Positions 6,970 to 19,926 of a DNA stretch of 64,000 nt are shown here, in pieces. The DNA lies in the NCBI RefSeq assembly GCF_030013595.1, contig NZ_CP122768.1, one strand, 5' to 3'. This DNA comes from Escherichia coli. Its GTDB lineage: Bacteria; Pseudomonadota; Gammaproteobacteria; Enterobacterales; Enterobacteriaceae. The notes beneath the pieces were generated by a model. That model saw nothing but the letters and a program-made list of their open reading frames with translations. It did not search any database and was not told the DNA's origin. How positions within the stretch are numbered: the stretch's first letter is position 1; every line of letters begins with the position of its first letter. A program made the translations under genes and the position numbers.

Positions 6970-7968
6970 TCATAACGCCTGGATTTTGGCCCACACGCTG
7001 TCATCAACGGTGATGCCGTTACGGCGGTTTTCGGCCAGCAGGGTAGTAAATTCGTGGCCGGGTAAGCGGATGGCCTGGTTTTCGTCAGCGCGTTCAGCGG
7101 TAGTAACGTAATCCATGATGCGTTGCAGCTTGGCATCGCGGGTGGGGCCGTCGATCAATTTATCCACTTCGATGGCGATAAAGATTTGCGAAACGCCGTA
7201 TTCGTCGCTGTTGTCCTGGGTGACTTCGGCAACCGATGCGCCGTCGGAAAGGAGAGTGGCGATCATATCCAGCACAATCGACATGCCAGAACCTTTCCAG
7301 TAGCCCATCGGTAAAATGCGGCGATTCTTCTCGATAACGCCAGGTTCTTTGGTCAAATTGCCCTCATCATCAAAGCCACCATCGACCGGGAGCTGACGGC
7401 CTGCCAGACGGTTAACTTCTAACATGCCGTAAGAGAACATCGACATCGACATATCGACCATGGTGATTGGGGTAGAAGGAATGGCGACGATCAGCGGGTT
7501 GGTGCCGATGCGACACTCTTTTGCGCCCCACGGCGGCATTACGGCGATGGAGTTGGTCCAGCAAATGCCAATATAGCCTTTTTCCGCCGCCTGCCAGCCG
7601 TAGCTGCCGCCGCGCATCCAGTGGTTGGCATTACGTAGTGCCACCAGACCAATACCATGATCGGCAGCCAGTTCGATGGCGCGATCCATCATCTTTTTCG
7701 CTGTCAGGTTACCGATCGAACGCTGGGCGTCCCACTGTTCAATTGCGCCGAGGCTGGTTATACGTTTGGGTTGGGCATCAGGAATGATATCGCCGTTTTC
7801 CAGTTGTTGAATGAAACGAGGGAAACGGTTGACGCCGTGAGAATAAACGCCGGATTCGGTGGTGCGGGCGAACATCTCGGCACAGGCATCAGCCGTTTCG
7901 CTGTCAACGCCGCGTGAAATTAAGACTCGATTAAAGGCTGCTTTTAACTGCTCAAATGTCACTTTCAT
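6970..7968 (-). CDS. yiaK: 2,3-diketo-L-gulonate reductase
   Basis: 332-aa [29 protein letters not shown]...; first gene of the operon. Confidence 0.9.
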
Positions 7969-8168
7969 CCCTGGCTTCCTTGTTTTTTTGATCGCTTTTT
8001 TGGCTTAAAATTTCAATATACGAAATCTGATTTCAAATATATCGATCGCTTTTTAACAAAGCAATCTGATTGATGAATTTCAAAAAACTTAAAAATCAAT
8101 TGGTTATAAATTATCTGTCGAGATCGTGAACTACGACACACTTTGCGCTACCATCAGGACGCGACAAA
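7969..8168. promoter_or_regulatory. yiaK / yiaJ divergent control region with AT-rich direct repeats
   Basis: 200-bp AT-rich spacer between divergent starts; repeated ATTTCAA(A)TATA-like motifs near 8009-8042 and 8076-8087. Confidence 0.4.
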
Positions 8169-9017
8169 ATGGGGAAAGAAGTGATGGGAAAAAAAGAGAA
8201 CGAGATGGCGCAGGAAAAAGAGCGTCCAGCCGGAAGCCAGAGTCTGTTTCGCGGGTTGATGCTGATTGAGATTTTGAGCAATTATCCAAACGGTTGTCCG
8301 TTGGCGCATCTTTCGGAACTGGCTGGTTTAAATAAGAGTACCGTCCATCGCTTATTGCAGGGATTACAGTCCTGCGGCTATGTGACCACCGCGCCCGCCG
8401 CAGGGAGTTACCGCCTGACTACCAAATTTATTGCCGTCGGGCAGAAGGCGCTGTCTTCGCTGAATATCATTCATATCGCCGCTCCGCATCTTGAGGCACT
8501 GAACATCGCCACTGGTGAAACCATTAACTTTTCCAGCCGCGAAGACGATCACGCTATTTTGATTTATAAGCTGGAACCCACAACCGGGATGCTGCGAACC
8601 CGTGCCTATATAGGCCAGCATATGCCGCTCTACTGTTCCGCAATGGGCAAGATCTACATGGCGTTTGGTCACCCGGACTATGTGAAGTCATACTGGAAAA
8701 GCCATCAGCATGAGATCCAGCCGTTAACCCGCAATACCATTACCGAGCTGCCCGCGATGTTCGACGAACTGACGCACATTCGTGAAAGTGGAGCGGCGAT
8801 GGACAGAGAAGAAAACGAACTCGGCGTCTCCTGTATTGCTGTTCCGGTGTTTGATATTCATGGGCGGGTGCCGTACGCCGTGTCGATTTCTCTTTCGACA
8901 TCACGTCTGAAACAGGTGGGGGAGAAAAATCTCCTGAAACCACTGCGTGAAACCGCGCAGGCTATTTCTAATGAACTGGGATTTACTGTCAGGGACGACC
9001 AGGGCGCGATCACATAA
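8169..9017 (+). CDS. yiaJ: IclR-family transcriptional repressor of the yiaK-S operon
   Basis: 282-aa ORF with N-terminal HTH (LSELAGLNKSTVHRLLQGL). Confidence 0.9.
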   Translation: MGKEVMGKKENEMAQEKERPAGSQSLFRGLMLIEILSNYPNGCPLAHLSELAGLNKSTVHRLLQGLQSCGYVTTAPAAGSYRLTTKFIAVGQKALSSLNIIHIAAPHLEALNIATGETINFSSREDDHAILIYKLEPTTGMLRTRAYIGQHMPLYCSAMGKIYMAFGHPDYVKSYWKSHQHEIQPLTRNTITELPAMFDELTHIRESGAAMDREENELGVSCIAVPVFDIHGRVPYAVSISLSTSRLKQVGEKNLLKPLRETAQAISNELGFTVRDDQGAIT

Positions 9018-18330: not shown

Positions 18331-19849
18331 GATGTTCGCTCCTCAATGCGGCTTCCATCACCTGCTCCTGAGTCAGGTTATGATTTATCAGGTTGGCTTT
18401 TAGTTTCCCTTCATGCATCACCAGTACACGATCGCTAAGGCCGAGCACTTCAGGTAATTCGGAAGAGATGACAATAACGGCAATACCCTGCTGGACGAGT
18501 TGGTTAATTAATTTGTAGATCTCGTATTTCGCGCCAATATCGATACCCCTGGTGGGCTCATCAAGAATGAGAATGCGCGGGTTGAGTAACAGGCAGCGAG
18601 CGAGGATCGCTTTTTGCTGATTACCGCCGCTCAAACGTCCAATAGCAAGGTCGGGTGACGACGTTTTAACTTTGAGTTGCTGGATTGATTCCAGAATACA
18701 TTTTTGCTCTGCCGCGTCATCAAGCTGGCTAATACCGCCGGTAAATTTATTGAGTGCGGCGAGGGTAATATTTTTACCAACCGCCATTACCGGAACGATG
18801 CCGTCGCGCTTTCTGTCTTCGGGTACCATCGCAATCCCTTGGGCGATGGCTTGCTGACAGTTACAAATATCTACCTGTTTGCCATCAATATAAATTTTTC
18901 CTTCCCATTGTCCGGGCCACACGCCAAACAGGCACTGAATGGTCTCGGTACGTCCGGCACCAACGAGTCCGGCAATACCCAGTATTTCGCCACGTTTCAG
19001 GGAAAACGAGACATCATTAACTCGTTTAATATGACGATTAACCGGATGCCATGCTGTCAGATGTTCAATACGTAATATTTCATCTCCGGTGGTATGTGGT
19101 TCATTAGGGTAAAGCGCGGTTAACTCTCGCCCGACCATCATGGTGATAATATCGTCTTCACTCATTCCGGCAGCATCACGCGTACCAATGTGCTGACCGT
19201 CGCGAATAACGCAAATCGTATCGGAAATCGCTTTGACTTCGTTGAGTTTGTGCGAAATATAAATACAGGCGATACCGTGCTGTTGTAGATCGCGAATAAT
19301 ATCCAGTAAAACCGACGTTTCCTGCTCAGTTAATGAGGCTGTCGGTTCATCGAGAATTAACAAGCGCACCTGTTTATTAAGTGCCTTGGCAATTTCAACC
19401 AGTTGTTGTTGCCCAAGCCCTAAATCGCCAACGCGGGTATCAGGTGAAATGGATAAACTGACCTGTGCGAGCAGCTTCTGACAGCGTAGCGTCATCAGGT
19501 CATAATCCATAATGCCATTGTGGGTTATTTCGTTACCCAAGAAGATATTTTCCAGCACGGTCAATTCTTTCACCAGGGCCAATTCCTGGTGAATGATGGC
19601 GATACCTTTGCGTTCGGTATCGCGGATGTGACTCGCCTGAATCTCTTCTCCCGCAAAAATAATTTCGCCTTCGTAGGAGCCATGGGGATAAATACCACAC
19701 AGCACTTTCATCAGCGTTGATTTACCAGACCCATTTTCCCCACAGAGTGAGACGATTTCGCCAGCATTCAACCGCAAGCTGACGTTATCAATCGCCTTCA
19801 CACTGCCGAAGGTTTTGGTAATGTTCTTCATTTCAAGTAGATAAGGCAT
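18308..19849 (-). CDS. xylG: Xylose ABC transporter ATP-binding protein
   Basis: 513-aa ORF with duplicated Walker A motifs ([18 protein letters not shown]); 23-nt overlap with xylH. Confidence 0.9.
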
Positions 19850-19926
19850 AACGACTCCACCTAAGCCAATTCATTCACGCGGCATGGAGAGAAATCACGC
19901 CCCCGCTCCTCGCCGGGGCGTAACGC

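Follow-up and report, generated by a model that had tools for sequence, protein, structure and literature searches.

The ATTTCAA repeats of the divergent yiaK/yiaJ spacer in Escherichia coli: probable boxes of the YiaJ (PlaR) operator and a tract beside an IHF-type core

The divergent spacer and its repeated motif

What are the repeated A/T-rich motifs that lie between yiaK and yiaJ in Escherichia coli, and is there more to them than the low GC content of the DNA in which they stand? In the present study, this question was addressed for the spacer of 200 bp (positions 7969-8168) that separates the two genes in a stretch of 64 kb, hereafter the window. To the left, yiaK (6970-7968, minus strand) is the first gene of the repressed operon; to the right, yiaJ (8169-9017, plus strand), which the K-12 annotation names plaR, encodes an IclR-family repressor. 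The open reading frames, the Pfam domains (Ldh_2 for YiaK, HTH_IclR and IclR_C for YiaJ) and the RefSeq annotation all agree with the initial annotation of this DNA, which had described an AT-rich spacer of 200 bp between yiaK and a divergently transcribed yiaJ of the IclR type. The GC content of the spacer is 33.5%, compared with 51% for the window. Of 5426 complete E. coli genomes, 4979 contain this kilobase, with its genes annotated as yiaK and yiaJ.

Several features of the strain and of the gene boundary were also observed. The annotated ATG of yiaJ at 8169 is AAG in the GTDB representative of E. coli (L001), and the alignments of orthologues to YiaJ start at residues 2-9. Judging from the sequence, the true start of yiaJ is probably the ATG at 8184 (Met6), with GGGGAAAGAAG before it. 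Over positions 8001-8110, an identity to the window of at least 99% was found in only 20 of 4538 genomes, and an identity of 90-95% in 2766; these counts indicate a fast evolution of the spacer outside the boxes described below and a minority haplotype in this strain. Positions 8066-8075 and 8086-8092 are polymorphic within E. coli (CTGATTGATG vs. CCACGCTGTG in the GTDB representative).

All three motif copies listed in the initial annotation were recovered, at most one base from where they had been placed: copy 1 (ATTTCAATATA, 8010-8020), copy 2 (ATTTCAAATATA, 8030-8041) and copy 3 (AATTTCAAAAAAC, 8076-8088, plus strand). The word ATTTCAA occurs three times in the spacer, compared with 13 times on both strands of the entire 64 kb. 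When the spacer was shuffled 5000 times with its dinucleotides preserved, this word reached at least three copies in 8 shuffles. A 7-mer of at least three letters, whatever its sequence, did so in 145 of the 5000 (2.9%), and some 6-mer was present three times in 22% of them. Measured against chance, repetition by itself is borderline and constitutes weak evidence. An inverted pair of the form GAAAY-N3-RTTTC, i.e. GAAA(C/T)-N3-(G/A)TTTC, has its sole match in the 64 kb at 8022-8034 (GAAATctgATTTC) and was seen in 38 of the 5000 shuffled spacers. The decisive evidence that the motifs are real is their conservation.

A probable three-box operator over the inferred yiaK promoter

A scan for YiaJ in species-representative genomes gave 80 loci across Enterobacterales, with Escherichia, Citrobacter, Klebsiella, Enterobacter, Serratia, Yersinia, Rahnella, Pectobacterium, Brenneria, Hafnia, Edwardsiella and Budvicia among the genera sampled. 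In a MAFFT alignment of 46 orthologous spacers, the block at 8007-8049, TAAATTTCA(A/C)TATgCGAAATctgATTTCAAATATA..CGATC, which holds copies 1 and 2, is nearly invariant, and no other part of the yiaK-proximal half is conserved to this degree; the sequence next to it has diverged. The 34-nt core of this block (AAATTTCACTATGCGAAATCTGATTTCAAATATA) stands upstream of the yiaJ orthologue, on the same strand, in 78 of the 80 loci, mostly with 0-2 mismatches. Thus, the motif comparison across Enterobacteriaceae that had been proposed as a check finds copies 1 and 2 near-invariant in the orthologous spacers. Among seven E. coli haplotypes sampled, none departs from ATTTCA at any of the three copies, although the spacer as a whole is fairly polymorphic. 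The core was absent from two of the 80 loci, namely L024, a Klebsiella metagenome-assembled genome, and L054 (Intestinirhabdus alba). The spacer of the former is only 143 bp; in the latter, both the block and a neighbouring yiaK are missing.

The block is also kept in 19 loci (L022, L027, L033, L041, L045, L048, L049, L067-L069, L071, L072 and L074-L080) in which the gene divergent from yiaJ is not yiaK and encodes the ATPase of a sugar ABC transporter (~510 aa). These loci include Kosakonia, Phytobacter, Raoultella ornithinolytica, Serratia, Yersinia, Pectobacterium, Brenneria and Edwardsiella, and the ATPase gene lies ~30-125 nt to the left of the block. The block thus accompanies the regulator and its divergent promoter and not yiaK. 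The divergent ATPase is ~35% identical to the product of a xylG-like gene elsewhere in the window (18347-19852).

Three boxes were recognised in the conserved block. Box 1 (ATTTCA, 8010-8015, plus strand) is the core of copy 1 and box 3 (ATTTCA, 8030-8035, plus strand) the core of copy 2, and the two are direct repeats with a spacing of 20 bp, i.e. ~2 helical turns. Copies 1 and 2 had been listed correctly in the initial annotation, but the inverted box between them, box 2 (cGAAAT, an inverted ATTTCg, 8021-8026, minus strand), had been overlooked. Box 2 is common to two palindromes, forming GAAAT-N3-ATTTC with box 3 and ATTTC-N7-GAAAT with box 1. Of the repeat unit originally proposed, ATTTCAA(A)TATA, the ATTTCA box stands and the 'TATA' tails do not, as they are not equivalent: the tail of copy 1 is the spacer of the outer (everted) palindrome, and that of copy 2 is the likely -10 hexamer of yiaK. 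The fourth box that a symmetric tetramer site would contain is poor on either side (GGCTT at 8002-8006 and cGATCg at 8043-8048). When the 37 distinct versions of the core are compared, exact copies of box 1 are present in 34, of the GAAAT of box 2 in 28 and of box 3 in 32, and the N3 spacer between boxes 2 and 3 varies more than the boxes, a pattern expected of a palindrome recognised by a protein.

Other repeated or conserved words were observed around these boxes. An exact direct repeat, GATCGCTTTTT, occupies 7990-8000 and 8044-8054, and in other genera it appears as an inverted pair, GATCGC ... GCGATC, roughly symmetric around 8018-8019. Outside the boxes, good conservation across Enterobacteriaceae was also seen for a CTTTTTT run (7994-8000), which would read as AAAAAAG at ~+29 to +35 of the yiaK leader. 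Another exact repeat, AATCTGATT (8024-8032 and 8063-8071), was discarded, being unconserved even among E. coli.

The block coincides with the inferred yiaK promoter. An automatic scan for the sigma-70 consensus called no promoter in the spacer at its threshold, and the hexamers were therefore assigned by hand from sequence and conservation. The candidate -10 is TATATT (8041-8036, minus strand), read from the sequence, which is the 'ATATA' tail of copy 2, and the positions that yield its TAnnnT are conserved in the orthologous blocks. The candidate -35 is TTGCTT (8064-8059, minus strand), assigned from the sequence and the alignment and replaced by TTGATC in most other genera; the two hexamers are 17 nt apart. 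Ibanez and colleagues, in 2000, reportedly found the 5' end of yiaK 60 nt upstream of its ATG. Taken together with the position 7 nt downstream of the -10, this figure places the likely transcription start at ~8028 on the minus strand, 60 nt 5' of the ATG at 7968. On this numbering, box 1 would cover ~+14 to +19 of the yiaK transcript and box 3 ~-2 to -7 of the promoter, such that the operator block overlaps the inferred -10 and start of yiaK. The TATATT of copy 1 was considered as a duplicated -10 and dropped, since it has no -35 upstream and is CATAGT in most genera. The assignment is consistent with the PlaR box reported to overlap the experimentally identified yiaK promoter (PMC6958661).

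The same locus has been examined in several reports. Shimada et al. (2019; PMC6958661) described a palindromic PlaR box, ATnTGAAACnnnGTTCAnTT, overlapping the yiaK promoter, and obtained the highest gSELEX and EMSA signal on this spacer, the EMSA probe being, according to the primers in the supplement, the entire spacer. In that study, yiaK was derepressed in a plaR mutant, PlaR was released by ascorbate and galacturonate, and PlaR and KdgR had targets in common. Using ChIP-exo, Gao et al. (2018; PMC6237786) reported two peaks of YiaJ within the spacer, of which one overlies the position of RNA polymerase. Binding of YiaJ to the spacer and repression of yiaK are thus taken from the literature, and the observations of the present study concern the anatomy of the sequence, its conservation and the fixed spacing of its elements. 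A search of the open-access literature for footprint positions in the spacer found nothing relevant.

The sequence at 8018-8038 (ATACGAAATCTGATTTCAAAT) corresponds to the PlaR box at the same locus and agrees with ATnTGAAACnnnGTT(T)CAnTT at 13 of its 17 specified positions, compared with 14 of 17 in K-12. The published box of 21 bp comprises boxes 2 and 3 only; box 1 lies outside it and is equally conserved. Suvorova and Gelfand (2021; PMC8222616) distinguished two types of IclR-family motif and described three-box sites in which one pair of boxes fits each type, and they interpreted tandem sites 18-22 bp apart as binding by a tetramer; these three-box and tandem sites are predictions by positional weight matrix. 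In the spacer, boxes 1 and 2 (ATTTCAa-TAT-aCGAAAT) fit their group 1 (GKTYCRY-W3-4-RYGRAMC) and boxes 2 and 3 (cGAAATc-T-gATTTCA) their group 2 (TGRAACA-N-TGTTYCA); both the sharing of box 2 by the two pairs and the 20 bp between boxes 1 and 3 correspond to the three-box and tandem architecture. Sites are given there for b3574/b3575, with equivalents in Shigella, Salmonella, Klebsiella, Citrobacter and Enterobacter. Those listed for b3575 in Supplementary Table 1 are ataTTTGAAATCAagTTTCgCAtaT at -73 and, 20 bp away, cATaTTGAAATttTAagcCAaAAaa at -53, together with AgTTTCgcATATTGAAATT at -60, which includes box 1, and a weak site at -127, TtTTatgTcTtTTGAAATT (score 4.02), which is copy 3.

Compared with related systems, the A/T-rich GAAA/TTTC group represented in the spacer differs from the GTNCG-type group to which the PcaU, PobR and HmgR boxes belong. 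The KdgR box of gamma-proteobacteria (RWWGAAACGNCGTTTCAKKA) likewise has GAAA...TTTC half-sites and is read by an IclR-family helix-turn-helix; however, the operator in the spacer has GAAAT/ATTTC half-sites, a spacer of 3 nt and an additional upstream box, and it is tied to yiaJ orthologues, not to pectin-utilisation genes.

Thus, PlaR/KdgR-type boxes with a phylogenetic footprint were found in a divergent spacer beside the regulator gene and across an inferred promoter. Copies 1 and 2 are very probably boxes of the YiaJ (PlaR) operator, with copy 3 belonging to the tract that flanks an IHF-type core. The initial annotation had suggested operator or architectural-protein sites, and copies 1 and 2 bear out the first of these options, matching the PlaR box (PMC6958661) and the predicted sites (PMC8222616). 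It had also considered that the motifs are not explained by annotation; this is true of gene annotation, but the literature does account for them.

Two other explanations of boxes 1-3 are very improbable in the light of these data. An A/T-rich word might simply recur by chance in a spacer of 33% GC, and the frequency with which some 7-mer or 6-mer is tripled in the shuffled spacers is in keeping with this; however, boxes 1-3 are near-invariant in 78 loci whose flanking spacer has diverged, and they agree with IclR-family motifs that were derived independently, so that for copies 1 and 2 chance is refuted by conservation. Likewise, boxes 1 and 2 might be conserved for a structure of the nucleic acid itself, either a DNA cruciform or a hairpin of the yiaK 5' leader RNA (AUUUCG-N5-UGAAAU), and the minimum-free-energy fold of the leader does pair the two boxes. 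That hairpin amounts to only -3.5 kcal/mol and is weaker than in shuffled sequences (z = +1.18; 180 of 200 fold at least as well), the DNA fold is not better than shuffles either (z = +0.37), and an Rfam search gave no match. Moreover, of the putative stem pairs, 8015:8021 would be an A:C mismatch in 29 of the 37 sequences and 8016:8020 can pair in only 49%.

The third copy and the IHF-type core

Copy 3 stands in another context. It occupies a T/A tract at ~-48 to -60 of yiaK, directly 5' of a predicted IHF-type core, AATCAATTGGTTA (8094-8106, plus strand; consensus WATCAANNNNTTR), which is centred at ~-72 of yiaK. This core is the sole match in the spacer and one of five on both strands of the 64 kb, and 44 of 61 orthologous spacers retain it without change. 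A run of A6 (8082-8087) is present on its 5' side; copy 3 sits 7-18 nt 5' of the core, and the offset between tract and core is fixed at 17 nt across loci. IHF sites typically carry an A/T tract 5' of the core, and Ibanez and colleagues are said to have reported, in 2000, an involvement of IHF at the yiaK-S promoter. Similar to IHF sites of the lambda H' type, the core in the spacer is exact and follows A6 and a T/A tract to which copy 3 belongs; the A-tract is 7 nt away from this core, a slightly shorter distance than in H'.

The conservation of the three repeats is therefore not uniform: the near-invariance of copies 1 and 2 extends to copy 3 only in part. Among the 49 loci that keep the IHF core, TTTCA is found at the position of copy 3 in ~19, and the rest have TTTTA or TTTGA. 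The latter words characterise Citrobacter, Klebsiella and other genera, in which the T-tract/A-tract is kept. In addition, copy 3 has no inverted partner at either N3 or N7 spacing, and the combination of a conserved TTTCA with an inverted partner that marks the YiaJ boxes does not occur here. From this sequence context, we infer that copy 3 belongs to the A/T tract at an IHF-type site and is not an equivalent copy of the operator. The possibility of an architectural-protein site, raised in the initial annotation, is thus supported for copy 3, which lies in the A/T tract by a conserved IHF-type core.

Two alternative roles for copy 3 were weighed against this reading. A functional distal YiaJ box, auxiliary or autoregulatory and perhaps looping across the IHF bend, has some plausibility but is doubtful on balance. 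Copy 3 shares ATTTCAA with boxes 1 and 3 and does not vary among the seven sampled E. coli spacers, the weak b3575 site (score 4.02) has a similar counterpart in Enterobacter cloacae SCF1 (PMC8222616), and the two ChIP-exo peaks of YiaJ in the spacer (PMC6237786) would allow for a further YiaJ site, which might be copy 3. Nevertheless, an inverted partner is missing, TTTTA or TTTGA replaces TTTCA in Citrobacter, Klebsiella and others with the remaining architecture fixed, and copy 3 is 67 and 47 bp from boxes 1 and 3, respectively, out of helical phase. Copy 3 might also belong to an A/T-rich UP-like element that serves the yiaK promoter from -48 to -60 and is contacted by the alpha subunit of RNA polymerase only. 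Its position relative to the inferred -35 and the conservation of a T-tract/A-tract, not of a specific word, are consistent with such an element, but the exact IHF core next to it is conserved at the fixed offset of 17 nt and a tract on the 5' side is typical of IHF sites; taken as the whole explanation, the UP-like element appears unlikely. The UP-like reading and the reading of copy 3 as an IHF tract are compatible and not mutually exclusive.

Spacing of the control elements and regulation of yiaK

Beyond the IHF-type core, the order away from the yiaK promoter continues from the core at ~-72 to a predicted CRP-like site at ~-104.5. This site, cGTGA-N6-aCACA (8125-8140), agrees with 8 of the 10 core positions of TGTGA-N6-TCACA, and a match of at least 8/10 is found in 59 of 61 orthologous spacers. 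Another CRP-like match, at 8069-8084, takes in copy 3 and was rejected; at 7/10 it is at chance level, the window having 168 matches of this quality on one strand, and it is unconserved. The CRP-like site falls within a near-invariant element of 34 nt, GATCGTGAACTnnnnCACACTTTGCGCTACCATC (8122-8155, plus strand), which has 0-1 mismatch in 58 loci, including Edwardsiella with a YiaJ only 73% identical. Of the 58 loci, 55 have precisely 114 bp between this element and the operator core, and all 58 have 113-115 bp; the intervening sequence varies. The first half of the element is CRP-like; the invariant CTTTGCGCTACCATC half might, from its sequence, be the yiaJ promoter, with TACCAT as the -10, or a leader element. 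The fixed spacing of operator, IHF core and CRP-like site points to a phased nucleoprotein complex.

An excess of Dam sites was observed in the same region. GATC is present at 7990, 8044 and 8122, i.e. three times in the 200-bp spacer vs. 0.75 expected at the rate of the window, and 3-5 times in 46 of 61 orthologous spacers. One of these GATC sites lies within the CRP-like site and another flanks the operator. The excess might result from methylation or protein competition, or the sites might simply be part of degenerate outer boxes (gCGATC). A search of open-access papers for Dam or GATC linked to yiaK found nothing relevant.

Herein, we propose a simple scheme for the regulation of yiaK. YiaJ would bind boxes 1-3 as a dimer of dimers, covering ~-10 to +20 of the yiaK promoter as judged from the sequence, and by analogy with other IclR-type proteins the direct spacing of 20 bp would place the two dimers of a tetramer on one face of the DNA. 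Bound YiaJ would occlude RNA polymerase at the yiaK promoter, and the position of the operator over the -10 and start fits repression of this kind. The binding of an effector, ascorbate or galacturonate according to the literature, would then release YiaJ. In this scheme, we infer the contacts at single boxes, the promoter hexamers, the tetramer geometry and the occlusion, as well as the role of copy 3.

A more elaborate arrangement can be imagined, in which box 2 is shared alternately by two mutually exclusive dimer registers (N7 or N3), copy 3 serves as a lineage-specific fourth box in Escherichia and Enterobacter, and these, with the IHF bend and the CRP-like element at 114 bp, build a stereospecific complex for repression and autoregulation. 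This arrangement is speculative and improbable; it exceeds the PlaR box of 21 bp and follows the idea of 'alternative dimerization' (PMC8222616).

Returning to copies 1 and 2 as boxes of the YiaJ operator, every element of the motif finding is already in the literature and the spacer is an ordinary control region. The yiaK promoter has been studied since 2000 and its local repressor has been characterised, and the significance of the finding is small. In the present study, two modest additions were obtained. The spacing of operator, IHF core and CRP-like site is exact to the base pair in 55 species representatives. Furthermore, box 1 is as conserved as the palindrome, which means that the PlaR operator, whether for its definition, for use in a biosensor or for a scan of the regulon, is better taken as a three-box unit of 26 bp (8010-8035).
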